Below, piece by piece: positions 3,467 through 32,177 of a DNA stretch of 32,177 nucleotides. The stretch comes from Danionella cerebrum. Its lineage: Eukaryota. Positions within the stretch are counted from its first letter, which is position 1. Each line of letters starts with the position of its first letter. The stretch spans positions 491,535 through 523,711 of the forward strand of contig SRMA01025353.1 of the NCBI GenBank assembly GCA_007224835.1, written 5' to 3'. Position numbers and translations under genes: made by a program. The notes under the pieces are model-generated. The model saw only the letters and a list, made by a program, of their open reading frames with translations. It made no database searches and was not told the origin of the DNA.

Positions 3467-3983
3467 GGGAGTGATGGCGGCCACGGAGTGTTACATCGTC
3501 CACGAGATCTACAACGGTGAGAATGCACAGGAGCAGTTCGAGTACGAGCTGGAGCAGGCTCTGGAGGCGCAGTATCGATACATCGTAATCGAACCCACAC
3601 GCATTGGAGACGAGACGGCCCGTTGGGTGGCCGTGGGGAACTGCCTGCACAAAACCGCCGTTCTGGCTGGGGCCGCCTGCCTCCTGACGCCCCTGGCCCT
3701 CCCTGTCGAATACTCTCGTTATGTGGCTCTACCTGCGGGCGCACTGAGCCTGGCCTGTTCAACGCTGTACGGCATCTCCTGGCAGTTTGACCCCTGCTGC
3801 AAGTATCAGGTGGAGTACGACAGCCAAAAGCTCTCGCGGCTCCCGCTGCACACGCTCACCTCCTCCACGCCGGTGGTTCTGGTTCGACGGGACGACGTGC
3901 ACAGAAAGAGACTGCACAACACGATAGCGTTGGCGGCCCTTGCCTACTGTGCCAAGAAGATCTACGAACTGTACGCTGTATGA
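3467..3983 (+). CDS. tmem11: tmem11 coding exon 2 (to stop TGA 3981-3983); transmembrane protein 11, mitochondrial
   Basis: Acceptor tgtgtttag|G at 3466. The translation TECYIVHEIYNGENAQEQFEYELEQALEAQYRYIVIEPTRIGDETARW...HRKRLHNTIALAALAYCAKKIYELYAV is near-identical to human TMEM11. It matches ORF track entry 3444..3983. Confidence 0.92.
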
Positions 3984-8253: not shown

Positions 8254-8369
8254 CTGTGTCTTTCCATTAGAATTGCTTCTGAGCTCATCAGAGACTTCCT
8301 GCAATCTTTTCTGGTCTCGTCCACAAAGGATCAGCCTTGCCCCGGCCGCATGGAAGACCCGAGCACATT
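8254..8369 (-). CDS. dhrs7b: dhrs7b coding exon 2 (ECARVFHAAGARLILCGRDQKRLQEVSDELRSNSNGKTQ)
   Basis: Acceptor ccatcag|AA and donor CAG|GTATAT. Matches human [31 protein letters not shown]. Phase consistent with exon 1. Confidence 0.8.
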
Positions 8370-8466
8370 CTGATGGAACCCATTTCATGAAGTAAAAAAA
8401 ACAGCAATGTGTTATCTCGTTGATAAAACAATATAATCATTGTAAGTAAATGGACATGCTTGTAAC

Positions 8467-8605
8467 CTTTGCCCAGGCCCGAACTGGCTCCAGTTATCAC
8501 CACCACTTTATCCTGGAGATTCTGTTGCCGTCTCAGTCTCCGGATCAATTTTAGTAAGATCAAGAGACCCAAAGTGCCAGCAGCCAAACCCAACACACGC
8601 TCCAT
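8467..8605 (-). CDS. dhrs7b: dhrs7b coding exon 1 (MERVLGLAAGTLGLLILLKLIRRLRRQQNLQDKVVVITGASSGLGK + 1 nt); donor AAAG|GTTACA
   Basis: ATG at 8605-8603 on the minus strand. It carries the SDR Rossmann motif TGASSGLGK, matching human DHRS7B VVVITGATSGLGK. Confidence 0.75.
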
Positions 8606-8610
8606 GAGTC

Positions 8611-8660
<50 letters not shown>

Positions 8661-8661
8661 A
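8611..8661. repeat. (TG)4(TA)n microsatellite abutting the dhrs7b start codon
   Basis: tgtgtgtgtatatatatatatatatatatatacatatatatatatatata lies directly 5' (minus-strand sense) of the ATG at 8605. Confidence 0.9.
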
Positions 8662-9229
8662 TTTGAAAAATAAATGCAAAAAAAGTTAGAGATAATAGCA
8701 TTGTCCACTGGCATTGGATCTAATGGGTAACACCTGAAAAGCCTCCCGAAGATGTTGCTTTAAAAAAACAACAGTGTTAGAAATGTAATCACAAGACTAA
8801 ACAGTTAGCAATTTTTATAAAATAAAATGATAGCAGTTAGCTAAGTAAATTGTAAGCAAACCATTTAATAACTTTTCATATTGTGACATCTTTTAGGATC
8901 CACCGTCTCAGATCAGAAACAATAAATGTTTTTGAGAAATAAAATATTTTTTCCACAGCTATACAATTTAGATTATTTTGTTTTAGAGTCATTGTACTGA
9001 CCAATAAAAAGCACATGTATACCGATTAAATGGATACAGTATTTAACTGAAATGTATAGCATGTAACCATTTTAGTGCGCAGCGATAAAAAAAAACATGT
9101 ATTATCATTATGTACAGGAAGCATGCGCTTAATTGACATTTTATTTAAACGTTAGCAATTTTTTTTTTTTACAAATAAAAGTCAGTTATAACATACCCAG
9201 GACAACAGTTGACCCAGAGAACCCGGAAA

Positions 9230-10918: not shown

Positions 10919-11803
10919 CTGCCAATCAAAGAAAGAAAAGAAGCAGTTGTCAGTAGAGCGTAGACTGATTAAGGCTTGCAGAGGGAGATCTTCGCTTCAG
11001 CCTTTAGCGAGCTATAAATAAAGCGATCGATTAATTAATCTTTCTAGTGTTCGATTACGTGCTAGTTTCACTTTGTTTTTGGCTAAAGACAAAAGTAGTT
11101 TGAATATTTTCTTTGAATACTTATTCAGGAAAATAGTAGTGTTTGTAAAACTGTTGCTTGAGAGCAGCCTTTAGTCATCTGCTGTACTTTGCCACACATT
11201 TTCTAAGGGATTTGTGCAGCCAGCAGACAAGTTCACTTACTTTGCTCAGTTGGACGTATTTCTTCACCAGAACCAGAGTGCTTTAGGTCATTATCATGAC
11301 GGAAGACAAAATATTGACCTGACCCAAGTCTTTCTGATGTTGGTTTCTTTTTATAGTCTTCCTTTAAATGTTTCTTAAAACATTATAATTTCCCCACACC
11401 ATTATACTCCCACCACCATGCTTAACGGCGGGAATGGTGTTCTTGGAGTTGAAAGCCTCTTCCTTCTTTATCCTTTTAGACAACATCTGTATGGCCAAAT
11501 AAAGCTCTTTTCCACAGGTTGTCTCCTTCAAACTGGCCTCTTCTTGAGGAAATGCAAAGTTCATCAACTTTTTTTGCTGCCTGTCTCCGATGGACAAGTC
11601 ACTAGTCGGTTTGCTTGGGAATGTCACCAATGGCCTCTTTCAAAATGAACATGATGGCTTGACTCTGTTGGTGCGAACCCAACTCACCCAGAGATTTAAA
11701 AATGTATCTTTAATACCAGCATGTAACATTGACTAAATATTCAATCTTGGCTACAATAAATAGCCATTTCCATCCAGTAACGAAAATGAGTTGTGAGACT
11801 TAC

Positions 11804-11956
11804 AAAGCAAGCACCCAAGACTTGAATCGGTGGAGTCATTGGGGTACCACGGAGGGTCATGAGTTGGGGAGGGCAGCCAGCTGCTACATGACGAGGGAAG
11901 GGGCTTTGATCGATCACTCCCATTCAGTTTGGGAGGAGACAGCAATGATCCATCTC
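11804..11956 (-). CDS. cramp1: cramp1 coding exon 17 (G DGSLLSPPKLNGSDRSKPLPSSCSSWLPSPTHDPPWYPNDSTDSSLGCLL)
   Basis: Acceptor ctcttctctttaccag|GA and perfect donor T|GTAAGT. Matches human GEGVPLSPAKLNGSDSSKSLPSP..IASPTHDPQWYPSDSTDSSLSSLF. Confidence 0.8.
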
Positions 11957-12025
11957 CTGGTAAAGAGAAGAGTTGAGTGAGCCAATGAAATAAAAGCTGA
12001 AAAAGGTTCAACCCCTCAGTCGTAC

Positions 12026-12212
12026 CGTAGTGCGAGTTAATGGCAAGTTCAATAATAGAGTCACTGATTTGAGTTTGTGGACCCCCAGATGGAAGAGACT
12101 CCTCCAAAGGGCCCGGTAGAGAAATATCCAGTAAAGAAGCCACACTGGGAGGAGCCAAAAGAGAGTCTCCTCCTCCAGGAGATGGAGGAGAAACACCATT
12201 CTGCAGAGAATC
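12026..12212 (-). CDS. cramp1: cramp1 coding exon 16 (DSLQNGVSPPSPGGGDSLLAPPSVASLLDISLPGPLEESLPSGGPQTQISDSIIELAINSHY)
   Basis: Acceptor ttttgtccacag|GAT and donor TACG|GTACGA. Matches human PLQNGLSIP..SPPDVSALLDISLPGPPEDALSQGEPATHISDSIIEIAISSGQY. Confidence 0.8.
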
Positions 12213-12722
12213 CTGTGGACAAAATGATGACAAAAGTTTGGTTGCTATGGATATAAGGTTTCCTTTATATAACTATAGGTTATATAAAGCAACCCCTATG
12301 TCTTTATCATTAACTAAGGCTGAGATAGGGTCCAGAAAATTTGGTTGCTAGGGTAAAGTTTAGTTGCTAATGGCCATTGTAGAAGTCCGTGGTGCATTTT
12401 AACCCCTCCTAGAGCCAAGAGTTCAAATACTTTTGCACAGTTCTTTGCATGTTCTTGCACAGACTGGTAACCTCCACGAGTGTGGTCTGTTTGAAGTCTC
12501 TGTTTTTGAGTTACAGGTTTGCAAAGTTTCACCCCATGTTCCAGCATTCTCATTGATTTCCCAGAATTCTATATAACAACCTGAGTCAGACTAATTTGGA
12601 TGACCTGGCAAAGTTTGGTGGTTGTGGCTTGAATGCACTACGAGATGCGTTTGGAACTTTTAGAAGCCAACGTTAAGATCTTGAACTAGTCTTCAAGTTC
12701 TAGGGAAGGTGTGGTTTCTTAC

Positions 12723-12892
12723 CTCTGATGGCTCTGGGTCGGTTAAGTCGGGTTCTATCTCAGCCGGAGTAGAAGTTGAGTCCATGGCCTCTTCAGAATC
12801 CATCATGGGCTTGTCTACCCTAGAGGGCTCAACCTCATGACAAGGGCTGCCAGGGATTATACCGGCGGATTTGGCAGCCAGGTCAATTGCAC
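12723..12892 (-). CDS. cramp1: cramp1 coding exon 15 (S AIDLAAKSAGIIPGSP...DSTSTPAEIEPDLTDPEPSE)
   Basis: Acceptor tttttcag|GT and donor GAG|GTAAGA. Matches human SAIDLAATSAGILSGNP. Confidence 0.75.
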
Positions 12893-12969
12893 CTGAAAAA
12901 AATTCAAGACAAATTCGTTGTTGGGCTGGGGGTTCACCTGTTTAACAGATGTATGCTTGAGATTCTTAC

Positions 12970-13080
12970 TGGACAGCTCAGCAACAGATCCAGAACTAGA
13001 TGCAGCAGATAAAGCTTTAGTGGAAAGCTGGCGGCCTCCCGGAGAAAGACGTGTTTGAATTGGACGAAAAGAACCAGTGC
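12970..13080 (-). CDS. cramp1: cramp1 coding exon 14 (G TGSFRPIQTRLSPGGRQLSTKALSAASSSGSVAELS)
   Basis: Acceptor ttttatacag|GC and donor TCCA|GTAAGA. Matches human GRGSFRPIQSSLTKAALSRP. Confidence 0.7.
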
Positions 13081-14508
13081 CTGTATAAAAAAAGAGAGAA
13101 GTCGTGATTGACCCGGTCTTCCTGAGCGTAGAGAGCTTAATGTTGGCTTTACTCCACTTTCCTCCTTTGAAGTCTGATCTGTGATCTAATCTTCTACTAA
13201 ACTACATGACGTCAGAGATGGTTAAAACCAAACCACAAAAATCAGTTGCGACCATTGCGGCTGACCTGGGGTTGTTAGACATGTGCTCTTTGTTCCATTT
13301 CAACCCTTCACCTTCGTTCACGAGCATTCACGTGAGGCAAAGGGCTGTCCCAATTCTCTTTTGTAGACCAATGTGCATTCCTAAGGATGACTAGACCTAC
13401 GCTTTAAAACCAAGGGCTAAGATGGCTTCCAGCTCAACTAAAGAGACAGACAAAAGCTAGTTCTGCCAAAAAATGATAAATTAATTTTATGTCAAATTTC
13501 ATGTCAGCGTGTACTTTTAAAAAAAATCACACAAAAAAGCAAGTTTTGCAGTACTAATGCACCAAATATTAGCCTAATAACATTAACTGTTTGTGTTCTA
13601 TGCACACAACATAGAGGAACCAATGAAATCATTCAGTATTTTCGATAAGTTCAACAAAAGAAAAGCAGGGCTAACATGAAGGAGAAAAGAAAAGAGTAGC
13701 AGTCTGATCATGATTCACAGCAACGCTAGAAAGCACCAGGTGAACACAAAAAGAAATAGCGGACACAAAATGTTAATACGGAGAGTTTATCTGGCTAAAG
13801 AAAAGCAGTATATCAAAGTATATTCCCACAATGTGCCAAAAACCTTTCTTATTGCACATTAATATACTGCACAATCAATATATGTATTGCTATTTTTTTG
13901 TAAAACTTGTATATCATGTTCAAAGTACAACCTTCTGTAAAAATAATAGCAACTGTATATTTAGCCTTATATCCATAGAACAAACATCTGTAAATAATAG
14001 CAATAATCTTTCTATTTTGTACATATCTTTAACTTATGTCCTGCACCTGCTGCTTTTTTGCACTACTGGTTAGACGTAAACTGCTTTTTGTTGCCCTGTA
14101 CTTGTGCAATGATAATAAAGTTGAATCTAATCAAATCTAAGAAAAAAAGACAACTATTACCAAACGGTATGAGTTCAGAAGAGGAGAAGTTTGATAATGG
14201 AGCGATTAAAAGTGAAAAGAGTTAATAAAACTGTTTTGAAATTGGAAGATTAATTTAACGTTTATTGTGCAGTGGCTGTTTTACATTTAGTAAAGGAAAT
14301 TCACTTGGGATAGCTGTTTTCATTTCGGGCTAACAAAACCAGAGCAGTGCATGCTTGAAGGACTAGGTATTTTTAAAGTAATTCTAACGACCAAAACTCT
14401 ACGGTGTATATATTGTTAAAAAGATAAATAATGTGTTTTGTAAATAAACCCTGAACATGTAATTTCTTTATGAAGTGCTTTATATGGTGTGTGCGAGTGA
14501 GTCATCAC

Positions 14509-14590
14509 CTGTTGCAGAAGAATTTGAAAGGATGGAGAAGGAGCAGACGTGAGGTGAAGTGTCTCCCGCTGACCGTGGCAGCAGTGTTCG
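14509..14590 (-). CDS. cramp1: cramp1 coding exon 13 (RTLLPRSAGDTSPHVCSFSILSNSSAT)
   Basis: Acceptor tgtttaacag|CGA and donor ACAG|GTGATG. Matches human RTLLPRPSENQSHNVCSFSILSNSSVT. Confidence 0.75.
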
Positions 14591-14664
14591 CTGTTAAACA
14601 ATTTATTTTATTTATACGATACAGGAAAACATGAAGGACTATTTACAATTCAATCAGCGCTTAC

Positions 14665-14733
14665 CTGAACCACGAGAGGTTTTCTCAGAGGACGCCCTCT
14701 CCCTATTTTCCTTTGCTTTGAAAATATATCTGA
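14665..14733 (-). CDS. cramp1: cramp1 coding exon 12 (SDIFSKQRKIGRGRPLRKPLVVQ)
   Basis: Acceptor tttgtttctcag|TCA and donor CAG|GTAAGC. Matches human SDFFLPKPRKLRNRHLRKPLVVQ. Confidence 0.75.
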
Positions 14734-16100
14734 CTGAGAAACAAATAAAGAAAAAGTGAGGATGTTTCGTTTAGTTTTTCTTCTTATATTGGATTTAAAT
14801 ATAATATAACAAGTTGTATTTACATGTTTGTATCTTACAGGTAAGACAAATAAATATACATTTATAACTTTTACAGGTTTTGTGATCGATTATACAATTA
14901 GGAGAACTATTCAGTTTCAGTTTTAATACTTTTTGAGCTTTTCTGGATAAAGGGAAGGAACATCATTCTATTCTTGTGATGTTCGACTACAATTTACTAC
15001 GGCAAAATAAAAAATATAAGTTGTTACTAGTGTTCTATCTCTGTACCGGTGAGTAAATATCAACTAAATTTGCAGCATTAAGCGAACAAATGCAAAAGGA
15101 AAAACAGTCAGTAATCATTCATTCTTCTTGGTGGCAACTTAATCGGTAAAACCCTCAAGAACCGAGCATTTAAAGATTAATACAGGTCCTGTTACAGCCA
15201 CGCCCCAGTGGATCTAAACAAGTTTGACTAATAGCAGAATACCGCCGAAACTCAAACCATCTCTATTTAATCTTTATACTGTACACAACGCTTGTATCTG
15301 TGGTAAAACTATGAACTTACTATCTCTGTTTAGATTCAGTCCGAGCATGAGGAAGCCTCGGGTCGCCAAATATTTTAGATCTTCTTCAACATTACTAGTA
15401 AAGTTATTGTTTCCAGAGATTAAATTCTCATTTATTTAGTTGTTTTAATAATAGATACTACTAATTAAAAAAAAAAAGATTTAATTTGCTGATGATAAAA
15501 TTGTAATATGTGTCTCGTACACTTACGATTAAAGCATGTTTATTTTGTTCGATTAAATGCAAAGCTGAATTGTTAACATTTTTATAATATCTCAAGCATG
15601 TATTGAAGCATATATTGGTAGATTTATTATTTTATTTTACTTTTGTTTGTGTTTTTCTATTTGTTTTTGGAAACGGTACAGTTTAAAAGCATTGATCTTG
15701 CACAAGAATTCTGAGATGAATCACAAATGAAACGTTCTTTGGTGTGGCTACGGAAGAAACTGATTGTTTTTGTTATTTTGCCAAATGTGAGAGTACTGTG
15801 AGGGGCCAAGAGAGCCTGCAGCCGGCTCCAGACCCATTTTTTAAACCTGACCTATTTCCCGAATTTAAGTCTTTTTAATAACCTGCAAACAACAAAATCA
15901 CTTTATGTACAAACAACACTCAAATATAGAGTTATTAAAATAAATAAACCTTGAATTATAAATGATTGCTGTATTACAACAATGGTCACAGATTTATTTT
16001 CAAAGGTTTTAATTTCACAAAAGTTAGGAAGGCTAATACTGCAGAAAATACGAAAGTCGGTAATTCACTATTGAAGTTATTTATTTAAAACACAACTCAC

Positions 16101-16261
16101 ACTGATGGAGTCCAACTGTTGGCGAAACGCTAGCTCCGCCTCTTTGTTAGGAGAAAACATCCGAAACTGCCGTGAGCTGTTTGGAGGCAGAGTTGTGGGG
16201 ATGGCAAAACCTTCACTGTCCCCTCCGGACCCCAACAGAGCACGGGGTAGGTTCCTTCCAC
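16101..16261 (-). CDS. cramp1: cramp1 coding exon 11 (GGRNLPRALLGSGGDSEGFAIPTTLPPNSSRQFRMFSPNKEAELAFRQQLDSIS)
   Basis: Acceptor ggttttcacag|GT and donor AGT|GTGAGT. Matches human GGLFAVPTTLPPNSRHGKLFSPSKEAELTFRQHLNSIS. Confidence 0.8.
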
Positions 16262-16397
16262 CTGTGAAAACCAAAACAACATCGACTACAGCTTGTTAAA
16301 CGAATATGACGCAGGGATATCATCACTATGCAGATAATGGTGACGCCGTGGTTGCCAGAAGTCTATTCTACAGCATTATCCAAAAGAGTAAACGTAC

Positions 16398-16563
16398 CTG
16401 ATATTGGATAATTTAGATTCATTTTTGAGCGTGCAACATGCTGCTGTCGACCCCAGCTAGGGCTACGGGTTGCCCCGGTGAGGGGTCTGCCTGGAGGAGT
16501 AACAGAGGATTCTTCTTGACCTGACTTGAATGGAGATGTTCCAACCGAGCACACCTCGGGGGT
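16398..16563 (-). CDS. cramp1: cramp1 coding exon 10 (TPEVCSVGTSPFKSGQEESSVTPPGRPLTGATRSPSWGRQQHVARSKMNLNYPIS)
   Basis: Acceptor ttcctag|ACC and donor CAG|GTACGT. Matches human ..RPAQEEQSMTPPGKVVTVSSRSPRCPRNQASLRSSK. Confidence 0.7.
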
Positions 16564-16648
16564 CTAGGAATTTAAACAGATTCCGTTGCTAAAACACTGA
16601 ATTCTGAAAGTAATTGTAAGAAGAAAAAAAAAAAGACATGATCCTCAC

Positions 16649-17476
16649 TGGTTTGGGGTTGACCTCTGATGAGACGAGCCTCAAAAGACACCGAAGCACA
16701 TTTTGAGTGCTGGCAGGAGAGGTTTGCGACTTTGCCTGCCATTCATACTCCAGCTGAAGTTTGCCAGGCTTTCCCAGCATGAGGTAGAGTTCCGCCAGCG
16801 TCACATTCTCTGAGCCCTGCGAGCTCCAGCCTTCTTCTCGTATTTGTTGAGGAGATCGTCCACTCCCAGCTGCTTCCTCAACACGTAACTGAGGTTCTAA
16901 CGGAGGTAGCACCTTTTCTGTTGAAAGCGCTCCTGTTGCTCCAGACTCCTGGGGGTCTGGGACGCCCTGGGACTCTACACAGGTTTCATCCCTCTGAATG
17001 ACTGTCTCGGATTGTTGCTCTAGTCCACCAGCTTCAATCTGAGCCACTGACTCCTGCTCCACAGACCCTGTCGCATTTCCCTCTGCTCCATCAGGAAGTG
17101 AAGCGGGGATGGGTGGGCTGACTGGAGAGCTGATGCTATGGATTGGGTTTGTGCTGGTCTCCAACCCTGGAGCTGAAGTAACGCTTTCAGAACCTTCGGT
17201 GGGTGGTCCTTCGCCTCTTTTAGTGTCCGATTTCCCTGATTTTCCTCTAGCAGGCTGAATTCCCAGTATGTGTGCTGTAGGCAAGTCCCTAATACCCGTC
17301 CGGCCTCGCCCACTCTCCTGCCAGTGCACTGTGCAGGACGCCTTGGAGTGCACGACTCGAGCCACACCAGGCAAAGCTGTAACCGTGCTGTTCTCTGCAG
17401 GAAACAACAACAGATCCTCTGACGGGCGAGACTGGGGAAGAATGTCTAGTGCTTCTCGTTCTTCCAGACTCTGCCG
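16649..17476 (-). CDS. cramp1: cramp1 coding exon 9, large central exon (RQSLEEREALD...PGVARVVHSKASCTVHWQ...TLAELYLMLGKPGKLQLEYEWQ...RLVSSEVNPKP)
   Basis: Acceptor gatgtgcag|CGG and donor CCA|GTGAGG. Matches ORF track 16589..17668 (-). Conserved with human ..PLPGVARVVHSKAFCTVHWQ.. and LTLAEVYLMMGKPSKLQLEYDWL..STEVNPK. Confidence 0.8.
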
Positions 17477-17574
17477 CTGCACATCATGGGTTAAGGTTAA
17501 CAAGTTAAAGCAGACAAATCTATCAGGAAGTCTCTGACGATGGAAGAAAATGAAACTCATGACTGTAAGGATAC

Positions 17575-17656
17575 AATTCGTTGATCCTGGAGAGCCCACT
17601 TTTGCTTCAGGAATTCGATCAGAGTTGAGACTTTTCGATGCAACTCGATGACCATC
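17575..17656 (-). CDS. cramp1: cramp1 coding exon 8 (MVIELHRKVSTLIEFLKQKWALQDQRI)
   Basis: Acceptor tgtgctcgcag|G. Matches human MIVELHRKVSSLIEFLKQKWALHEVRV. The 3' end is placed at AATT|GTATCC because the reading frame must shift before the next conserved block. This boundary is the least certain in the gene. Confidence 0.55.
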
Positions 17657-17857
17657 CTGCGAGCACATGGTTGAGGGAACAAGACAAATTAAGAAGCTTC
17701 ACTTCACTCAAAAAAATCTTCATTAGATGTATAATATTGCAGGTGATGTACGAGTAAGTCTTTCCTTTTAAATCAGACGGCTTCTGGTTTAAATGTGTAT
17801 ATTTGCAGAATGCACCATTGTCTTTTTAATGCTACAAAAACCCAGTTAGCTTTTCAC

Positions 17858-17981
17858 CTGAGCCGAGGATTATGGGCTAGACTCTGAACCCGAGCCCAGG
17901 AGTGATTGCTGCGAGGCTGAAGTTCAACAGCCACCTTCAGGGGTAAGCGCACAGGCTTCTGATCCTCCTCATCACTCACAC
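17858..17981 (-). CDS. cramp1: cramp1 coding exon 7 (GVSDEEDQKPVRLPLKVAVELQPRSNHSWARVQSLAHNPRLR)
   Basis: Acceptor ccttggtttag|GT and donor AG|GTGAAA. Matches human GLSDEEDQKPVRLPLKVPIELQPRNNHAWARVQSLAQNPRLR. Overlaps ORF track 17854..18036 (-). Confidence 0.85.
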
Positions 17982-18158
17982 CTAAACCAAGGGGGAAAAA
18001 AAAGCATCGTATGAAGCAGACAACACCATCTCCCAAATATATTCCCCATCAACACCCATTCTGTAGTAATAACTCTCCATTCTGGGGATCCACGCTACAT
18101 AAATACACCCAGCTTACATCATTCAATCGATTTGAGTTGTTTTACAAGGCAAACACAC

Positions 18159-18244
18159 CATCGGGGTCGCAGATTTTTTTCAGAGCACGGCACATGGGGG
18201 CTTTGATCCTCAGGTTTCTGCCTTTGGAACGCACCGTGGTGGCT
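18159..18244 (-). CDS. cramp1: cramp1 coding exon 6 (ATTVRSKGRNLRIKAPMCRALKKICDPD)
   Basis: Acceptor ccttttcag|A and donor GATG|GTGTGT. Matches human ATTVRYKGRNLRIKAPMCRALKKLCDPD. Confidence 0.8.
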
Positions 18245-18326
18245 CTGAAAAGGATTACCACAGATAAGAATGAACAAATATCACAATAATATTGATTTCA
18301 TGTTTTGCTCCAACACAAACACTTAC

Positions 18327-18375
18327 CCCTGCTGGATGAGCTCGTTTAGCTTGGCCACATTTTTGTCATCCATCA
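18327..18375 (-). CDS. cramp1: cramp1 coding exon 5 (L MDDKNVAKLNELIQQ)
   Basis: Acceptor tgtttcttgtag|TG and donor GG|GTAAGT. Matches human CMDDKNATKLNELIQV. The junction codon gives Leu rather than Cys. Confidence 0.65.
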
Positions 18376-18476
18376 CTACAAGAAACAGGAAGGAATGTTG
18401 GATTCAAAATGTCCTCCCGTACTACCAATCGAATTTACCCCTACAATCAAAACATCTATTTGCCTTATGTACTTAC

Positions 18477-18560
18477 ATCCTCCAACCTTCTTCCTGAGTT
18501 CTGCGTAACAGATGAGGCCGTAGAGCTCCTGAGAGGACTTTTTCAGCACACGTGAATACA
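18477..18560 (-). CDS. cramp1: cramp1 coding exon 4 (YSRVLKKSSQELYGLICYAELRKKVGG)
   Basis: Acceptor gctttctcag|TG and perfect donor T|GTAAGT. Matches human FSRGLKKSSQELYGLICYGELRKKIGG. Confidence 0.8.
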
Positions 18561-18647
18561 CTGAGAAAGCAGATTATGAACTCCAGTTTGGGTTTGTTAT
18601 GAATTCTAATAAGTAGTATGTGCAAATACCAATCATTGTACTCTCAC

Positions 18648-18801
18648 CGTTGTTGAAATCAATGTGTTTGGAAATCTTGTGCCAGGTCCGGTAGTAGAAA
18701 TGGCGCACCTGCTCTTTGTTCTTCACCATACTAGCAGGTTTTCCCTTCTTCTTATATTTAAGAGCGATGTTGTTCTGGATGGCTTCAAAATCCTTCCCGT
18801 G
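18648..18801 (-). CDS. cramp1: cramp1 coding exon 3, SANT/Myb-like domain (HGKDFEAIQNNIALKYKKKGKPASMVKNKEQVRHFYYRTWHKISKHIDFNN)
   Basis: Acceptor ctgctttag|CAC and donor AACG|GTGAGA. Almost identical to the human CRAMP1 SANT region. Confidence 0.85.
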
Positions 18802-18872
18802 CTAAAGCAGTACAGGTGTTGGTTTCATAAGAATCAGCAAGTCTTAAATGATCATGAAAGCAGACAAGTCAC

Positions 18873-19075
18873 CTCATAAAGTCCTTCAAAGAAACTGTTC
18901 TTGTCTTCAGTGCTCCAAGACTCCCATTGTCTGCGCACACGTTTCTGACTGCCTCCTTCCTCCTTATCTGAAGGCCCCTGGCCCTTTGGAGCAGACTTGG
19001 TTGTACCAGCTGGTCCTGAGCTTGCAGCTGAACCCACAGAGGCTGCCACACACAAGGAAAGACCTCCGTCTGCAC
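18873..19075 (-). CDS. cramp1: cramp1 coding exon 2 (..KRVRRQWESWSTEDKNSFFEGLYE)
   Basis: Acceptor gtgcttctcag|GT and donor GAG|GTGACT. Matches human KVRRQWESWSTEDKNTFFEGLYE. Confidence 0.8.
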
Positions 19076-19249
19076 CTGAGAAGCACAGAGGAGTGGACAA
19101 GAGGTTGATATGCATCATTTTCACACAAATTCTGCGATTATTACAAAACTAAAGTCTAACAAGTACTTGCATGAATGTATATTTTGTACATATACATGCA
19201 CATAGGTATTCTTCATTCTATAACATCATGAATAACTGTTTAAAATGTT

Positions 19250-19640
19250 CAAAAGAGCTGCATGCAACAAAAATCCTGTGCGACATCTGTGTTAGTGTGT
19301 ATACTTGTTCATATTGCATGCTGCAGCATGTTTGTCCGGCCTTTGTAACATCTGCAGACCATGTTTTGGTCCCGTGCAACACATTTGTGGGTCAATCCGA
19401 CATCTGTGTCATGTGTCGGCCCTGTGAGACGTATTTGTAAGCCCCATGCAACCTCTGCTGGTCCCATGCAACATCTGCTACAGTTGCCAGTCCGTGCGAC
19501 ATCTTCGATACGTGCAACGTGTGTCTGTCTCTTGCGATATATTTGTCAGCCCCATGCGATATCTGCAACACATTTGTCGGCCCTGTGCTACAACTGCGAC
19601 ACGTGTAGGACCATCCTACATCCCTGACACATGTCGGTCT
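19250..19640. repeat. degenerate minisatellite (~20-27 bp unit, consensus roughly GYCCNTGCRACAYNTSTG) in cramp1 intron 1
   Basis: Repeated ..gtcccgtgcaacacatttgtgg / gccccatgcaacctctgctg / gtcccatgcaacatctgctaca / cccatgcgatatctgcaacacatttgtcg.. The overlapping same-frame ORFs 19171-19688 are artefacts of this periodicity. Confidence 0.6.
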
Positions 19641-20075
19641 CATGTGTTTTTTATTATTACAGTGTTATTATTATTAATAATAAAGTAATTTTCCCATTTC
19701 ATGTTGTGTTTAACTTTAATTTAAAGTACAGTAAGAGTTAGGGTTACTGTCTCAGCTGTTGTCGCTCTGTGTTACATACTATACCAAGCCAGTGGAAAAG
19801 CTCTTGTAGGATCAGAATGAAACTTCTTCCAGACTTGTCTCTTGCTGTGGGTGATTAATACACCGGTGATAAGAAAAAAAAAAGTAAACCATCGTTGAAA
19901 CTAATAATGTATGAAACTGTTCTGAAGTTTACAAGAAGTTAATCTTGTTGGTGTCAAGTGCTCATCAAGGTTCACAGCATTACTTCTGGCTCAACGGGAA
20001 TTGAAAATAGAGTTTAAAAGGCGTGATGCTACTATAAACAGTGACAGGTGACCAGTGGTCGCGAAGGCCACTCAC

Positions 20076-20430
20076 CTTTCGCTTTTGCTCCGCCGTGACC
20101 GTTCAGCGCTGGGGACGAGGCATCTTTCCGTATCCGCTTGCTTGGAGGTCGCACGCTGGAGCGTAGAAAATGATGCTGGTCCTGGTTGCTCGGGGCCGCC
20201 AGAACCGGGGAAAGGGCTGTCGGGTTGAGTTGGACTCCTGGTGGGCTTGATGTTTGGGTGGGAAGGGTGAGAGCACTGTTTGATGGATTAAATGTTTCCT
20301 CTCCGACTCTCTTTGTACTCGTCTCCTCGCTCGCCTGATCTGCGCTCTCTCCATCCTCGCCTCCTTCGGGCTTTCGGTCCAGTTTGCTCGGCCCCTCGAC
20401 ACCCGAACCGCCCCCTTGGCCCACTGTCAT
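20076..20430 (-). CDS. cramp1: cramp1 coding exon 1 (MTVGQGGGSGVEG...DQHHFLRSSVRPPSKRIRKD...GHGGAKAK + 1 nt); donor AAAG|GTGAGT
   Basis: ATG at 20430-20428 in cgcaggATGa context. Matches human CRAMP1 MTVKLGDGGSGEDG...DQHHFLRSSVRPQSKRPRKD. Lies in the CpG island. Confidence 0.8.
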
Positions 20431-21130
20431 CCTGCGTAAACACAAACAAAGCATACCCATAAACATTTTCCGCGACACAAAACAACGATCAACTTGGAAG
20501 GACGACGTTCTGCTCAACTCAACATGGCCGCCGCTGTTTGTTTCAAATCCCCTCTCACAGTCCCGACAAATCGTACCGAAAAAACACCCCTTTGTTTATT
20601 CACGAATGTGATAAAAACCACAAATTCTGCTTTCGTCCCAGCATCCCTTTTAGGTAGTTTCTCGAGCCTCGAGTCGCGAGCTGTCGGTTATTGAGATTCA
20701 AGCGCGAGCGCCTTCACTTTAGCGCCCTGCAGAAACGACAAGACGACGACGCAAATCTTTCGCACATTCGACCTCTATCTAAAGTGCTTGTTTCCCCAGC
20801 TCCCTTACCCATTTTCGGGCTCTTCGGAAGCAGACGTCGTCTTCTTTCTCTTCACCATGAGTTCGGAGGTTTTTGGGGCCGGAAATGGACGAATTTGAAC
20901 ATATTCAAAGCGCAAACGAGGTCAGGCAAAGTCGTCCTCTCCAGGCTGCTGCTCTACTGGGGTTCAACTCCGCGCAACGCAACTAGGCACTCTCGTAGCC
21001 ACAGCAACTCCGACCCATAAACTCACGAGTTTTACCAAAACAGCAACAGAAAACTGTCTATCATCCGTTTACGCTGAAACGCAAGCCGTTTGGATCCGAG
21101 CCTTCTTCGGTACTGCTTTTGAGGCGTTTC
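20431..21130 (-). promoter_or_regulatory. cramp1: cramp1 CpG-island promoter and 5'UTR
   Basis: High CpG density (cgcg, gcgcg runs) continues from coding exon 1 upstream to about 21.1 kb. The track ORFs here are overlapping-frame artefacts. Confidence 0.55.
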
Positions 21131-25905: not shown

Positions 25906-26138
25906 CTGTAGTTCCCAAGCCAGAGCCTGTTGTTGAAGCGAAGGTGGAGACGGTCACCCCTCAACTAACACCTGTAAAACAGCCTGCAGCTGCTGCACCT
26001 GAAACCAACCAGAGTTCTGATCCAGCAGCCCCACAACCATCAGAAAAAGACCATGAGCCCCGCCTCGGACCCCGCCCTCGTTCCCACAACAAGGTGCTCA
26101 ACCCTCCTGGTGGAAAGTCTAGTGTGGTTTTCTATTAG
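25906..26138 (+). CDS. jpt2: jpt2 terminal coding exon (..[28 protein letters not shown])
   Basis: Acceptor atctcttacag|CT. Stop TAG at 26136-26138. The C-terminus is nearly identical to human JPT2 [28 protein letters not shown]. Overlaps ORF track 25944..26138. Confidence 0.9.
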
Positions 26139-27431
26139 CCATGAGGGCTTCTCTCAAGCTTTTAACATCCTGAATCTCATGCTTTCTCATTTATTTGGTC
26201 CCTCTTTTGTTATTCATTCCTTATTTCCTTTTGCACTTGCTTTTGATTCATTCCTGGCTTTTTGTGTAATATGGAAGTCACCCCAGCAACTGAAAGGTTG
26301 TTGTGTTTAAAAACGGTTGCAAGGTTATGTTCACTTAAACCCAGTTTTCCTCACGGACTTCAGCACAGTCCCTGCAGTGTTCAACTGGAAACACGGATGC
26401 CAAGACCTTTGTGTCTCCATGGTCCTGTTAAACTCATTGAGTTGGTCCTGATCGCAGTTACTGTTTTCATTTGTGACTAATCTCTTCTATTCTTCCATTT
26501 CTTCTTTCATTGCTTGAGACAAAGCCAAATGCACAGTAGAATCTCGATGCCAAGGGTGCATTTGTTATTGATCACCAAAGCTTATGTGCTAGACAATGTG
26601 TGGGATAAAGTGTCATTGAGCACCTGGGAATATAAAAATCACAATCAACGCTTTTGAATGTAACCAGAGACTTTAAAATCCAGGTAGACCTGATTGTGGA
26701 TTTTGGAAAGTCATGTGTCTGTAAACATCTTTTTGTATTTCTCTCATAACAGTTTCCATCTCTCCTCAAAGCACTGTGCATCAGTGGTTTAATAGAAGGG
26801 ATAGGATTCCGTAATTTCTCAGAGGAAAGTTTCTTACAATGCAATACAACTGCGAAGTATTGGTTTTTGTGCTTTTTCTGTACTCGTTATTTTTCAAATG
26901 AAAGAAGTTTTCATAAGAAACTTTCTTAAGAAATTATGTTTTACAGATTTTGTTCAAAATAAAATATCAGACGTTTTCATTAAATATACTTATTGTCTTT
27001 TGTTTTATCTTTAAGGGTAAAACCACTTAATGGTATTAAACTATGAATTTGATTATAACAGACATAATTTTAACTGATGCTTCCGCTCAGACAGAAAGTT
27101 AAGCTGGGCGGAACTTTGTCTTTTGATATTGCATCACATGATGCGACTTGAGTCACCAAATTAGAGAGGTCAAATGCGTGAGCTTTGTGATGACTCAATT
27201 AAAAAGTTTGAGGATGTCAGTATTGCTATAAGGTCATTCTAACCCTGTTAGAATTTTTTTGAATTTTAGAATCCGCTGAAATGCTGCATTTTTTGAAAAC
27301 CAGACTTGCTTTTGTGAAGGAAAGAACCACTCTTGGGAGTGTAGTAAATTTCAGCACGGTACTTTGGTAGGATGCACTCCAGGTGTGAAATATACTTATA
27401 TTGTTTGTGGTACTTTGAAAGTCAAAATGGC

Positions 27432-27436
<5 letters not shown>

Positions 27437-27468
<32 letters not shown>
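27437..27468. repeat. (TA)16 microsatellite
   Basis: Perfect tatatata run, 27437-27468. Confidence 0.9.
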
Positions 27469-27471
<3 letters not shown>

Positions 27472-27999
27472 TAAAATATAATACTCTATATTTGTGTGTG
27501 TGCAATATAATTTTTTTAACACCCCAGAAAGCCTTTTTCAAGACATTACCATGCATATATGGGTAACCTGAACCATTAACGTTATAAACGTAAAAGATGC
27601 ATCGTTTTCTTTAGGCTTGGCACTAATTTGGTATCTAATTACTAAACAAATTAAAGGAGCATATTTATTGTCGAAATCAAAATGTCAGAAAAGCAATAGT
27701 CAGTCAGTTCCGCTTTCTGCAGCTGGGGGAGCTCTAGAGTAGCCGGTAAAATCTGATGGGCTTGGCCATCGACTAAACAACTTGCGTTCGAATGAACACT
27801 TTTTATACTGAAAATTAAACAATTTCTGGTATAAAACGTGAACGCTGTGACCACAGGCCTTCGGCATATTTCACTGCGCTTTATGATAGATATTGCGGTT
27901 AATTTCACCTCACGTGACACATGATTACAGCCCTAGCATTGCAGCTAGCATATGTTATTAACGGTATTTCCACCAATCCGTGGTGCAGCAAGACAGCAG

Positions 28000-28621
28000 C
28001 GATGAGACATCACTTTTCAGGCTTCCTCCATGCAGGCGCCGTGACGTCAGTTGCCGCTTCATCATCATCATCATCATTTTCCTCCTCTTCAGAATCCAGC
28101 GAAAGCCTGACGGAAACAGCATCACGAACCCCCGTCGCCCTGTCAGCCACCGGATTGATTTCTAACGCCGAAACAAGCAAACTGCCATAACGCTTGAACA
28201 TTCAGGAGAATCAGGACGGTATCTACTTCCTCTTTACATATTTATTTGTCTCCCGGCTGTTTTCACGGTTATGGCCGAGCTCTCGTGCCTCGATCGTTGA
28301 AGACACAGGCAGGTGCGCCTTCTGACTGCGCGATGATGTGATTTTCAAGCGATCGGTCTCGGTCCAGCTCCGGTGCAGCAATGAAACCGGGAGATTCCCG
28401 CGGAGCAGCGGTGCGCGAGTGATCGAGCCGCCCGCACTGTGGCGCGGGAGACTGTAGGCAAGAGTGACCGTTATCTCGCTGTCAAAAATAACGAACATTT
28501 GTAACGGCTGTGAAGTGACATCATGTCCACCTGATGACACGGTCGTGGTCTCGTCGAAACCGTGTCGCCATTTCAGTTTGCGATTGATTCATTCATTAGT
28601 CTCGGATCAAACACCGCGAAG
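28000..28621 (+). promoter_or_regulatory. mapk8ip3: mapk8ip3 CpG-island promoter / 5'UTR with perfect CRE palindrome TGACGTCA at 28042-28049
   Basis: Dense CpG over 28260-28620. ccgTGACGTCAgttgcc at 28042. (ATC)6 at 28061-28078. Confidence 0.55.
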
Positions 28622-28921
28622 ATGATGGAGCTGGACGAGGTGGTGTATCAGGACGACTACGGGGCCGTGTCCGTGATGTCGGAACGGGTGTCGGGCCTGG
28701 CCAGCAGCATCTATCAGGAGTTCGAGCGGCTGATTAAGAGCTACGACGAGGAAGTGGTGAAAGAGCTCATGCCGCTGGTGGTGACCGTGCTGGAGAACCT
28801 GGACTCGGTGCTGACGGAGAACCGAGAGCACGAGGTGGAGCTGGAGCTGCTCAAGGAGGACAACGAGCAGCTGATAACGCAGTACGAGCGGGAGAAGGCT
28901 CTGCGCAAACAGGCCGAGGAG
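28622..28921 (+). CDS. mapk8ip3: JIP3/JIP4-family scaffold gene, first coding exon ([100 protein letters not shown]); donor GAG|GTAAAC
   Basis: Near-identical to the RH1/JIP N-terminal region of human MAPK8IP3 (..[80 protein letters not shown]). The SPAG9 paralogue is not excluded. Synteny with cramp1-jpt2 favours mapk8ip3. Confidence 0.75.
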
Positions 28922-29327
28922 GTAAACACTGACATCACATCATCCCTTCATAAACTCCTGAAGAGAGGGGTTTTATTTTTAACAGGGGCATGAAGTGGAG
29001 AATTGAAGTGGAAATAGAAATTTTTACTTTAAAAACATTGTTGATACCGTTGGTTGTTCCCAAAGTCTTCTTCCAGATATGTTCTTCCAAACACTGGCTT
29101 GCTCTCTTCTTTCCAGAATAGGCTCTGGTTGTATTTTAAAAAGTCGTTTTGTTTGTAGTTAGCTTTTGTTTGACTGATAGTGTTAACAAGATGAATCCGT
29201 GTGTATAGCTTGTCACTACCGCAAGATGCATCTTTTAAATAAAGCGAAAACATTTTGAGCATTTGAGCATTCGCTGTAGCTTTATTATTCCATCCACTGT
29301 TAGCAATGTTTGGCAGTCTCAACAGAC

Positions 29328-29346: not shown

Positions 29347-30914
29347 AAAACCAACAATCCGAGGGGAAACACTCCACAGAATAAGCGGATTACTGGCAAA
29401 GCACTGATTATTACAAAAAAAAAGTTTTGTATAAATTAGTTCAGCAGCTTTGCAGAAAACCACATTTATTTGAGACTTAAGGTTTTCCAGATTTCTTCCA
29501 GGCCGTGATGTCACAGACCAAACACCAATATTAGAAAACATCACAAAAACTGTTTTTTTAGTCCTGCATTATAGTCCTGTGGTCATTTTCCAACCCTACC
29601 CCTCGCTCTCAATGTATTATCCATTCCAAAAGTTGGTTTAAATGCCCATAAATTAAAAAATGCATTATATATTACAGCAAACTGTGGGAGATATTTTGTA
29701 TGCGCATGTTAAGCATGGAAAGTGAATTATGTAAAAATTCAACATTTATGGTTATGTTTCCGAAACAGACAGAAACCATTGTTTACCACCTAGATTGGGC
29801 CATTGACTGAAACGGCAGATACTATTATTTTCATGCAGTAGCCCTAAGAGTGAAAGAGAGGCTCCAATGGGAAGACACCCAGAAATAGTGTAATGAAAAA
29901 GGATGTCTTACTCCTGATCACCTTTCCCTTGAAATACGTTATATATACGCCTTTTGATCTGATCTGTTCACGTTGAGACACAAGAATGAGACAAGCACAC
30001 TTCTAATACTTAAAAAGTTTTACCTTTAATAAAGACCCGAGGTTTGGCCATGGGAAAAGGCCTCATTATCTTTGACCTAGTGAAATCGCTACAAACTGCA
30101 GCTAGCAAATAGAGATCTTTCTGCGAGTGAGTACTGTCGTTTGCCCAGAAACGTCTCCCTCACAAAGAAAGTGGTATTTGTTGATTGCTGCATGAATCTC
30201 TAGGTCCTGTTTGAAGTTATGCACATGTTTGTAACTCAACACAGGCATCAACTTTGACTAGCATCAGTTCTTTATGCTAACATTTGGAAAACATTTTGCG
30301 ATGCTAACTCAGTCAGAACTTTACTCGGATTCTTGTCCATGGGGTTGTAGTTTAAAACCACGTTTTGCTGTTTTCCCTTTATTTAAGAACGTTTGACCAC
30401 TGTGAAGGTGTCTTGTTTGAGAAAGAGCAAAAGAAAAAACACAGAAGAGAAAATGGAATTTATTTCTATATATTTAGCACCTTTTAAATGTAAAATTTAT
30501 CCAGTACTGTATCTGATCAATCCTCAAAATCTGATGTGCTGCTTCTTGGAATATATTTTGTTGAGAAGGTAATATAACTTTCAATACCAATAGCCCAACA
30601 TTATTAGCATGAATCAAACGCATATCTTACTGCAACCCTGCACATTTCTATTTCCTTGGAGTCCAGTGGACGAGAGCGGGAGGATGATAGGCAAGGAGGC
30701 TGATTACGGATAATCAATTATCTCATAGAAGAATGCTGGCTGGTGCTGCAACCTGATTCTGGTGCTATGAGATGGAGAAAGAAAGAAAGTAAACAGCATT
30801 CTCCTATTTCACATCCTCTGGGATTGGCAGTAGTCTATAATGGCCCAAGAAAGAACTCATCTCACTGGTTCTGCCTCCTAGTCTTTAACCAATAACATAA
30901 AATCATCTGATTTA

Positions 30915-31080: not shown

Positions 31081-31126
31081 ACATCCCTAGTAGGTGCTAA
31101 GCTTTAAATGAATTAAATACGCAACA

Positions 31127-32177
31127 ATAAAAGGCTTACCATAGCATTCATGTTGTTGTATGCCCCGTCCAGGATTCGAACCCCGGTCTCCCATGTGAAG
31201 GATGGCAGCATTACCACTATACTATCCTTGGATTGGTCTGGATGTCTTGGCAAAGATTGTTGTTAGGATGGTCTTTAAGGTTTTTTTTTTTTTGTTACTG
31301 CTGCCTTTATAGTCAACAAAAAAAGCATAAAATTAATGTATTTTAAATAACTAGTTCAAATTATATTTGAACAACACAAACCAAACCAAGGATAGTATAG
31401 TGGTAGCGCTGCTGTCCTTCACATGGGAGACTGGGGTTCGAATCTTGGTTGGGACATACGACAACATGAATGCTATGGCAAGCATTTTGGTTTCGTTTAA
31501 AAATGGTCATACATATATGTATAGTGGTAATATATGTATAGTATGGTTGGATTATACTATACGTAGGATAGTACAGTGGTAATGCTGCTGTCCTTCACAT
31601 GGGAGACCGAGGTTCGAATCCTACGACATGACAACACAAATGCTATGGCAAGGGGGAGCCGTAGGTGAGTGGGCAGGGGGCAGGGGGCCATATAATTATA
31701 TATGAATATAATTATTAAAATAATTATTAAGCAACAATAAAATGCTTGCCACAGCATTCGTGTTATCGTATGTCGCAACCAGGATTCGAACCCCGGTCTC
31801 CCATGTGAAGGACGACAGCAAAACAACTGCACTATATCCTACATTTAGAAAATCCCACCATACTATACATATATTACCACTATATGTATGACCATTTTAA
31901 GCAACAATAAAAAGCTTACCATAGCATTCATGTTGTCGTATGCCCCATCCAGGATTCGAACCCCGGTCTCCCATGTGAAGGACGGCAGCAACACCACTAT
32001 ACCATATCCTACATATAGTATATCCCACCATACTATACATATATTACCACTACACTTATATGTATGACCATTTTTAAACGACACCAAAATGCTTGCCATA
32101 GCATTCGTGTTGTCGTATGCCCCATCCAGGATTCGAACCCCGGTCTCCCATGTGAAGGATGGCAGCAACACCACTAT
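31127..32177. repeat. inverted/convergent tandem array of ~175-bp units, each with a tRNA-Asp-like Pol III element (A box TAGTATAGTGG, B box GGTTCGAATCC) plus conserved tail acgacaacatgaatgctatggcaagc and T-run
   Basis: Six copies are visible. Copy A is on the minus strand at about 31160-31230. Copies B (31382-31453) and C (31566-31630) are on the plus strand. Copies D (31767-31840), E (31940-32010) and F (32117 to window end) are on the minus strand. B/C and D/E/F converge on a centre near 31640-31730. ORF track entry 31863..32174 shows the protein-level internal duplication expected from a tandem repeat. Confidence 0.6.

Follow-up and report, generated by a model that had tools for sequence, protein, structure and literature searches.

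The DNA analysed here (hereafter the window) is a stretch of 32,177 nt of the Danionella cerebrum genome (assembly GCA_007224835.1, contig SRMA01025353.1, positions 491,535 to 523,711 of the forward strand). Near its right end it contains the first coding exon of mapk8ip3, the gene encoding JIP3, which was located by similarity to the human JIP3 N-terminus and is followed by a GT splice donor at 28923 (direct reading). Downstream of this exon, an array of tRNA-like repeat units reaches the end of the window. A reading made from the letters of the window alone (hereafter the sequence-only reading) had placed this array in mapk8ip3 intron 1, and the gene structure agrees with this placement, i.e. 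exon 1 lies upstream of the array and exon 2 is absent from the window.

Searches of the window with one unit (blastn) and with a profile of the units (nhmmer) show that the block of related units is real and extends from ~31115 to the window end. It consists of exactly six copies (A to F; Table 1), with no trace of the unit elsewhere in the 32-kb window; a seventh copy counted in the sequence-only reading does not exist. Neighbouring copies start 170-177 nt apart according to a repeat finder (176 nt from B to C), in agreement with the unit length of ~175 bp proposed earlier. In Tandem Repeats Finder (TRF), the stretch 31723-32177 (copies D to F) appears as 2.6 copies that repeat with a period of 170 and match at 88%. 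Since the copies stand head to tail with a constant period, they form a tandem repeat. Identity between copies in the core and tail is 82-97%, with E and F being the closest pair and C and D the most diverged copies.

Table 1. Coordinates of the repeat array and of its host exon in the window.
Feature	Position	Strand	Description
mapk8ip3 (JIP3) coding exon 1	28619-28922	+	tblastn 79% to human JIP3 N-terminus; Pfam RH1, E = 1.8e-18
Copy A	31115-31239	-	nhmmer 135.7 bits; core, tail and T4; no AT-rich spacer
Copy A boxes	A box 31214-31224; B box 31172-31182	-	sequence scan
A/B loop	31240-31377		~138 bp, AT-rich, unrelated to the unit; T13 run and A7 run; between the heads of A and B
Copy B	31378-31504	+	nhmmer 135.0 bits; core, tail, T4 and post-T-run segment GGTTTCGTTTAAAAA; no AT-rich spacer
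Copy B boxes	A box 31393-31403; B box 31435-31444	+	sequence scan
Long imperfect palindrome	31397-32177		inverted repeat I1; 156-nt arms, 91% complementary
Copy C	31503-31652	+	blastn to unit positions 1-157, 84.8% identity; 61-nt AT-rich spacer and core
Copy C boxes	A box (TAGTACAGTGG) 31569-31579; B box 31611-31621	+	sequence scan
Palindrome centre	31653-31726		G-rich block, then AT-rich block 31688-31726; TRF rows 31671-31688 and 31690-31730
Copy D	31723-31895	-	full unit; blastn 86.9% over unit positions 1-175; nhmmer 128.3 bits; T4
Copy D box	B box 31782-31792	-	intact; A box degenerate
Copy E	31895-32071	-	full 177-bp unit, reference copy; T5 at 31909-31913 (A5 on the + strand)
Copy E boxes	A box (TGGTATAGTGG) 31994-32004; B box 31952-31962	-	sequence scan
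Copy F	32070-32177	-	truncated in the D arm at the window end; core and tail 96.6% identical to those of E
Copy F box	B box 32129-32139	-	sequence scan

Read in the tRNA sense, the unit (copy E) comprises a 61-nt AT-rich spacer, a tRNA-like core of ~70 nt and a tail. Alignment of the copies resolves its 3′ part into a 35-nt tail (CATACGACAACATGAATGCTATGGCAAGC), a run of T4-5 and ~15 more bases. The conserved tail ends in ...GACAACATGAATGCTATGGCAAGC and is followed directly by T4-T5 in copies A, B, D, E and F, as had been noticed from the sequence alone. Copy C is the exception, having a 6-nt deletion after the T arm and a tail that is truncated at ...GCTATGGCAAG, so that the T-run is absent. 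Within the AT-rich spacer the D-arm segment GTATAGTGGTAAT occurs a second time without any change and, by eye, a third time in a more degenerate form. This suggests that part of the spacer derives from a partial duplication of the unit's own 5′ end. Copies A and B have a 5′ leader of their own (...CCAATCCAAGG in A), which is common to these two copies only and matches between them at 13 of 15 positions. The best partner of copy B is copy F, and the post-T-run segments of these two match at 22 of 23 positions.

The arrangement of the copies follows the layout described in the sequence-only reading: copies B and C face D, E and F in convergent orientation, A points away from B, and the array is open at the window end, which cuts copy F. 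The G-rich/AT-rich centre is present as well and measures 74 bp (31640-31730 in that reading). A regular-expression search finds a G-quadruplex-type motif at 31652-31687, exactly at the inversion point, with the form GGGGG-N14-GGG-CA-GGGGG-CA-GGGGG and 2.6 repeats of GGGCAGG. The large imperfect palindrome claimed there was likewise found (I1; Table 1). Within it, copy B and the spacer of C pair with copy F and the spacer of E, and the core of C pairs with the core of E; the mirror symmetry is imperfect, with copy D as an unpaired extra unit that lies in the loop together with the centre. Copies B and C pair with E and F as a hairpin of ~270 bp. As single-stranded DNA the palindrome folds with -304 kcal/mol, and as RNA the plus strand from 31377 to 32177 folds with -451 kcal/mol, compared to -207 ± 6 kcal/mol for shuffled sequences (z = -38). 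Copies A and B form an inverted repeat of their own (I2), with arms at 31129-31240 and 31377-31488 (112 nt, 88% complementary, 136 nt apart). Overall, the inverted repeats I1-I9 show long inverted arms of subrepeats around a loop, i.e. a foldback structure. Several Rfam families of plant microRNAs also match 31128-31489, namely MIR5048 (56 bits, E = 3e-11, gathering score 160), MIR2630, MIR2619 and MIR4208, none of which comes anywhere near its gathering score. We rejected homology to plant microRNAs because these matches are caused by the long A/B hairpin.

We then compared the units with known tRNAs. Their consensus is 80% identical to vertebrate tRNA-Asp-GTC and 63-75% identical to nine other vertebrate tRNAs. 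tRNA-Asp is therefore the best of the ten, which bears out the tRNA-Asp-like core recognized in the sequence-only reading. That reading also held that the units are not bona fide tRNA genes. ARAGORN finds no tRNA gene in the window, and the Infernal/Rfam check that had been proposed returns tRNA matches for copies A and F only, both below the gathering score of 29 bits of the Rfam tRNA model (RF00005). The model aligns positions 8-63 locally to copy A (19.3 bits) and is 5′-truncated on copy F (16.4 bits); no match to copies B-E was obtained at E ≤ 10 in a 651-nt search.

According to the Rfam alignment, copy A can still form its D, anticodon and T arms, the anticodon and T arms containing a single mismatch each. 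Of the seven bases that precede U8 on its 5′ side (CCAAGGA), two pair with the 3′ strand ACGGGGC. Of the two arms that had been described as disrupted, the acceptor stem is thus indeed missing, whereas the anticodon arm of copy A is able to pair. The anticodon loop of copy A, CCUUCAC, contains C33 and no GUC anticodon. The A and B boxes are 42 nt apart from start to start (a gap of 31 nt) and not ~38 nt as had been estimated; the corresponding distance in tRNA-Asp is 43 nt. The spacing is thus one nucleotide shorter than in tRNA-Asp, which indicates that the anticodon region is not expanded, contrary to the earlier description.

A functional tRNA-Asp is recognized by a score of 29 bits, an acceptor stem of seven base pairs and an anticodon loop with U33 and GUC, and none of these was found. 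The units are tRNA-Asp-derived repeats and not tRNA genes. An ordinary cluster of functional tRNA-Asp genes would account for the 80% identity of the core and for the presence of A and B boxes, but its probability is negligible in view of the empty ARAGORN result, a best Rfam score of 19.3 against 29 bits, four copies that remain undetected at E < 10, the lack of an acceptor stem and a CCUUCAC loop that has C33 and lacks the GUC anticodon.

A tRNA-like block carrying an RNA polymerase III (Pol III) promoter in tandem arrays is also known from retrotransposons of the same fish order. [quoted passage not shown] The array resembles these TRIMs in its tRNA-like character, its conserved Pol III boxes, its blocks of ~110-200 bp, its tandem organization, its occurrence in the same order and the unlikelihood of tRNA coding. 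It differs from them in lacking LTR termini, a tRNA-His primer-binding site, the 43-bp internal part and a polypurine tract. In blastn comparisons with the consensus sequences Helenus-1_CaAu and Helenus-1_CCa (Data S1 of PMC10886601), the Helenus LTRs (~190 bp, TGTAAC...GGTTACA) match the window over 16 nt around the B box only, and the 43-bp internal part with its primer-binding site for tRNA-His (TTGGTGCCGTGACCCGG...) has no match in the array. On these grounds the Helenus/LTR-11_DR family was rejected.

A tandem LTR-internal-LTR series of a Helenus-type TRIM is highly improbable. The alternation of a ~115-bp tRNA-like block with a ~60-bp spacer is superficially similar to LTR-11_DR (PMC10886601). 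Besides the short LTR match and the unmatched internal part, however, no TG...CA termini and no boundary are common to all copies, and the homology of A and B starts and ends inside the candidate LTRs. The spacer (TGGTCATACATATA...), as judged by eye, contains no polypurine tract and has no primer-binding site, i.e. no complementarity to the 3′ ends of tRNA-His, -Lys or -Leu. Moreover, an inverted arrangement would not be expected from LTR-LTR recombination.

Tandem repeats derived from tRNAs or short interspersed nuclear elements (SINEs) form a known class and provide a precedent for the array; examples are squamate satellites that go back to SINEs (Vassetzky et al. 2023, PMC10702118) and the tRNA-derived satellite DNAs mentioned for Harttia catfish (PMC11955569). 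In common with these satellites, the array has a unit derived from a Pol III gene, a tRNA-like promoter, head-to-tail amplification at the DNA level, a short to moderate length and a lineage-specific distribution. In contrast to them, its progenitor looks like a tRNA-Asp gene with its own 3′ flank rather than a recognizable SINE, the array is partly inverted around a G-rich centre, and its sequence resembles none of the named families with which it was compared. As in tRNA-derived SINEs (SINE2), the head of the unit is related to a tRNA, carries A and B boxes and does not function as a tRNA. Unlike SINE2 elements, it has no tail related to a long interspersed nuclear element, no poly(A) or simple-repeat tail and no target-site duplications, and it ends in a Pol III T-run. 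In the window the units abut in register, with neither an A-rich tail nor duplicated flanks, rather than being independently inserted. The label "SINE-like satellite" in the sequence-only reading was close to the mark.

We also inspected orthologous mapk8ip3 loci. Six cypriniform loci (L001-L006) were available from assemblies, metagenome contigs and assemblies of sequencing runs. Their exon 1 is 80-88% identical to that of the window at the DNA level, and exon 2 follows 5.7-6.8 kb after exon 1 in L001-L004. The nhmmer profile finds no repeat unit within 10 kb of any of the six loci. Two non-coding elements of the window are 80-86% conserved in the orthologues: an intronic one (30649-30872), which ends ~250 bp before the array and is present in five of the six loci (L001-L005; the contig of the sixth ends short of it), and one upstream of exon 1 (26005-26142), which is conserved in L001-L004. 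Both are probably regulatory elements. Because the flanking intronic element is kept and the unit is absent in the orthologues, the array is best regarded as a lineage-specific insertion in intron 1, and its absence argues against a conserved role at the mapk8ip3 locus. Assembly GCA_977065575.1 contains two mapk8ip3 exon-1 loci (L001 and L002) on different contigs with near-identical conserved elements, a pattern compatible with polyploidy in a cyprinid or with haplotypes that were not merged. Open reading frames (ORFs) for a DDE_3 transposase occur in intron 1 of L001 and of L003.

The spread of the family beyond the window was traced by using accidental ORFs of the array as protein probes. 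A 103-aa ORF over copies E and F matches only two proteins among 5.8 billion, and these two are also the only clear matches in a HMMER search of 1.84 billion representatives, which returned in addition two long proteins that are probably low-complexity matches. Both clear matches, TRY92832.1 and TRY54685.1, are "hypothetical proteins" predicted by MAKER on other D. cerebrum contigs, one of them listed as "Secreted protein" in UniProt; they are translations of the repeat and therefore almost certainly spurious gene models. TRY92832.1 encodes two tandem sense copies, which stand ~81 nt closer together than D and E do. In TRY54685.1, a sense copy is followed by C-rich sequence and this in turn by an antisense tail, and the segment APPCRSICVVMS of this protein matches the junction in the window (APPCHSICVVMS) at 11 of 12 residues; it is the same convergent junction as that formed by C, the centre and D. 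The copies on other contigs and the repeated junction show that the family is dispersed in the genome and that the inverted junction is a recurrent module. The evidence for the family outside the window comes, indirectly, from these two D. cerebrum entries. An ORF spanning the centre yielded no candidates when used as a protein probe, and pattern scans of a metagenome collection that does contain cypriniform host DNA (L005) found no family member. A literal search for the unit sequence in papers gave no match, and the repeat is not described in the Danionella genome papers examined.

The recurrent junction bears on two further explanations of the inversion. First, the array could be part of a foldback-type or long-inverted-repeat non-autonomous DNA transposon, with arms made of tRNA-like subrepeats, a G-rich/AT-rich loop and a palindrome that moves as a unit. 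Foldback (FB-like) elements and miniature inverted-repeat transposable elements (MITEs) with long inverted repeats share with the array the inverted arms of tandem subrepeats around a central loop, and here the junction (sense copy, C-rich centre, antisense tail) recurs on another contig; that A and B make a further 112-nt inverted pair fits the same scheme. The zebrafish Angel element is an example of a long-inverted-repeat MITE. In contrast to such elements, the arms of the array are asymmetric (the counterpart of B is F and that of C is E, with D left over as an unpaired copy), and no termini, target-site duplications or transposase-related sequence are visible in the window, the right end lying beyond it. 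Copy spacing also varies between loci, which is more like satellite-style turnover, and the other known junctions amount to one. Taken together, we consider a foldback transposon a real but minority possibility.

Second, the inversion could be an assembly artefact, i.e. a fold-back chimera of long reads. The published D. translucida/cerebrum assembly is a Nanopore-Illumina hybrid (PMC6710283), and the array occupies the extreme end of the window. Arms created by an artefactual fold-back should be almost identical, however, whereas the arms found here are 82-91% complementary and show no simple mirror order, and an independent locus has the same convergent junction. An artefact is accordingly hard to credit.

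The Pol III signals of the units are preserved to a large extent. Every one of the six copies retains an intact B box, GGTTCGAATC(C), as the sequence-only reading had claimed. The near-consensus A box of that reading holds for A and B, where TAGTATAGTGG is exact, and for C and E, which are one base off, but not for copy D, where the box is broken (TAGTGCAGTTG); in copy F it is lost with the window end, so that four of the five copies that include an A box have it intact or near-intact. The combination of an A box (TRGCNNAGTGG-like), a B box (GGTTCGANNCC), a tRNA-like spacing and T≥4 is that of a tRNA-type Pol III promoter and terminator. Judging from the intact B boxes, the mostly intact A boxes and the T-runs, Pol III competence of the units is plausible. 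TFIIIC binding and the formation of intronic double-stranded RNA (dsRNA) are plausible as well.

Variation among the copies looks largely like drift. In the core and tail, 27 columns vary between copies, and 13 of these are in CpG context, as expected for methylated, unconstrained, drifting DNA. Individual copies are damaged, C by its deletion and truncated tail and D by its degenerate A box. The predicted RNAs of ~100 nt, from the head of the unit to the T-run, fold no better than shuffled sequences (z from 0.08 to -1.45), and the minimum-energy structure changes from copy to copy. Folding of the putative Pol III transcripts thus gives no signal of a conserved RNA structure, the six close copies, which differ mostly by CpG transitions, offering no usable covariation.

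These observations can be set against the functional proposal of the sequence-only reading, namely that the units are a cluster of Pol III genes that actively produce a tRNA-like small RNA, and/or that they form a barrier in mapk8ip3 that is bound by TFIIIC and belongs to the tRNA-gene (tDNA) or extra-TFIIIC (ETC) type. Such activity would explain why the B box is perfect throughout and its CpG has not decayed while other CpGs have, why the A box of copies A and B equals that of tRNA-Asp and that of C and E departs from it by one base, why the spacing of the boxes is near-native (42 vs 43 nt) and why T4-5 follows the tail in five of the six copies. It agrees less well with the absence of the array from the orthologous locus of other cypriniforms, with substitutions dominated by CpG context, which suggests germline methylation, with the truncation or damage of some copies, and with predicted RNAs that, apart from the T-arm hairpin, form no stable structure and share none. 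We therefore regard active Pol III genes or a barrier as unlikely. Still less likely, and indeed rather improbable, is a more elaborate version, in which tRNA-Asp-derived Pol III units of Danionella would be kept in palindromic arrays that combine a TFIIIC barrier with hairpin dsRNA as a regulatory module of mapk8ip3. Preserved B boxes would then recruit TFIIIC and set up an intragenic chromatin barrier, and convergent units or the host pre-mRNA would provide hairpin dsRNA to small-RNA or RNA-editing pathways. If true, intron 1 of a gene for neuronal transport would harbour a regulatory module that adjoins a conserved non-coding element. The insulator and fragile-site roles suggested in the sequence-only reading are speculation.

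Our preferred explanation, which we hold to be probable, is that the array is a lineage-specific (Danionella as far as seen), largely neutral, tRNA-derived repeat of satellite-like or foldback-like character that originated from a tRNA-Asp gene or pseudogene. Its anatomy, its relatedness to tRNA, its failure as a tRNA, its potential to form a hairpin, its presence elsewhere in the genome and its absence from the orthologous loci are observed; we infer its neutrality, any transcription and the following order of events: (i) the ancestor would have been a tRNA-Asp gene, or a pseudogene of it, including the adjoining 3′ flank and the terminator for Pol III; (ii) the unit would have lost the 5′ strand of the acceptor stem and gained the 61-nt AT-rich spacer, in which the unit's D-arm/A-box segment is partially repeated once and probably, in a more degenerate form, a second time; (iii) head-to-tail copies may have arisen by amplification at the DNA level, through unequal exchange or replication slippage; (iv) mirror-image copies may have been created by a fold-back or template-switch inversion, with the G-rich/AT-rich centre as the junction; and (v) blocks that include this junction would have been copied to other places in the genome. 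Intron 1 of mapk8ip3 would then have received the array as an insertion that is recent and not conserved, encodes no functional tRNA and drifts mainly by CpG decay.

Three observations fit this explanation less well. The B box is invariant in all six copies, its CpG included, and the alignment contains a 17-nt stretch, TCCTTCACATGGGAGAC, that is invariant in six of six copies. Such invariance could reflect either selection (for TFIIIC binding or RNA function) or recent common ancestry, which six copies cannot separate. In addition, a mobile foldback-type element would account for the second locus with this convergent junction no less well than passive duplication of DNA.

A likely by-product of a neutral array in intron 1 is an imperfect dsRNA hairpin of ~270 bp in the mapk8ip3 pre-mRNA, and another is a DNA segment prone to form cruciforms or hairpins and G-quadruplexes. 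As a possible further by-product, the preserved A and B boxes may bind TFIIIC or drive weak Pol III transcription up to the T-run, which would yield ~100-nt RNAs. Inverted Alu pairs in mammalian introns offer a functional analogy only: there, too, opposite Pol III-derived repeats produce a dsRNA stem in the pre-mRNA, but the repeat family and the taxon differ. For the host gene this means a predicted dsRNA stem in its pre-mRNA and a hairpin- and G-quadruplex-prone segment 250 bp from a conserved element.

The array matters for genome annotation because its units mimic tRNA-Asp genes enough to mislead by eye and have already given rise to at least two spurious D. cerebrum "hypothetical proteins" (TRY92832.1 and TRY54685.1). 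For repeat biology, it is a compact example of how a tRNA gene with its terminator becomes a tandem and inverted repeat. If fixed ends were true genome-wide, it would add a tRNA-built foldback element to the catalogue of fish repeats. The array leaves current understanding unchallenged, the general kind of repeat being already known.

Several other features of the window deserve brief mention. Directly upstream of copy A, the segment 30927-31060 comprises a T26 run and, after it, a fragment (GGAGTTTGCAT...GTTTCCTCTGGGTTT...) with an apparent resemblance to the conserved body of teleost DANA-type SINEs. Further away, a single-exon TMEM11 gene lies at 3474-3983 on the plus strand; its product of 169 aa is identical to TRY95601.1 of D. 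cerebrum (formerly D. translucida) and matches Pfam PF14972 (Mito_morph_reg) with E = 1e-75. On the minus strand, by our own reading, the ORF at 8288-8701 may be a DHRS7B exon and the ORFs at ~11751-20517 may be CRAMP1-like exons. The window also contains (TA)n microsatellites at 8619-8660 (21 repeats) and 27437-27473 (18 repeats).

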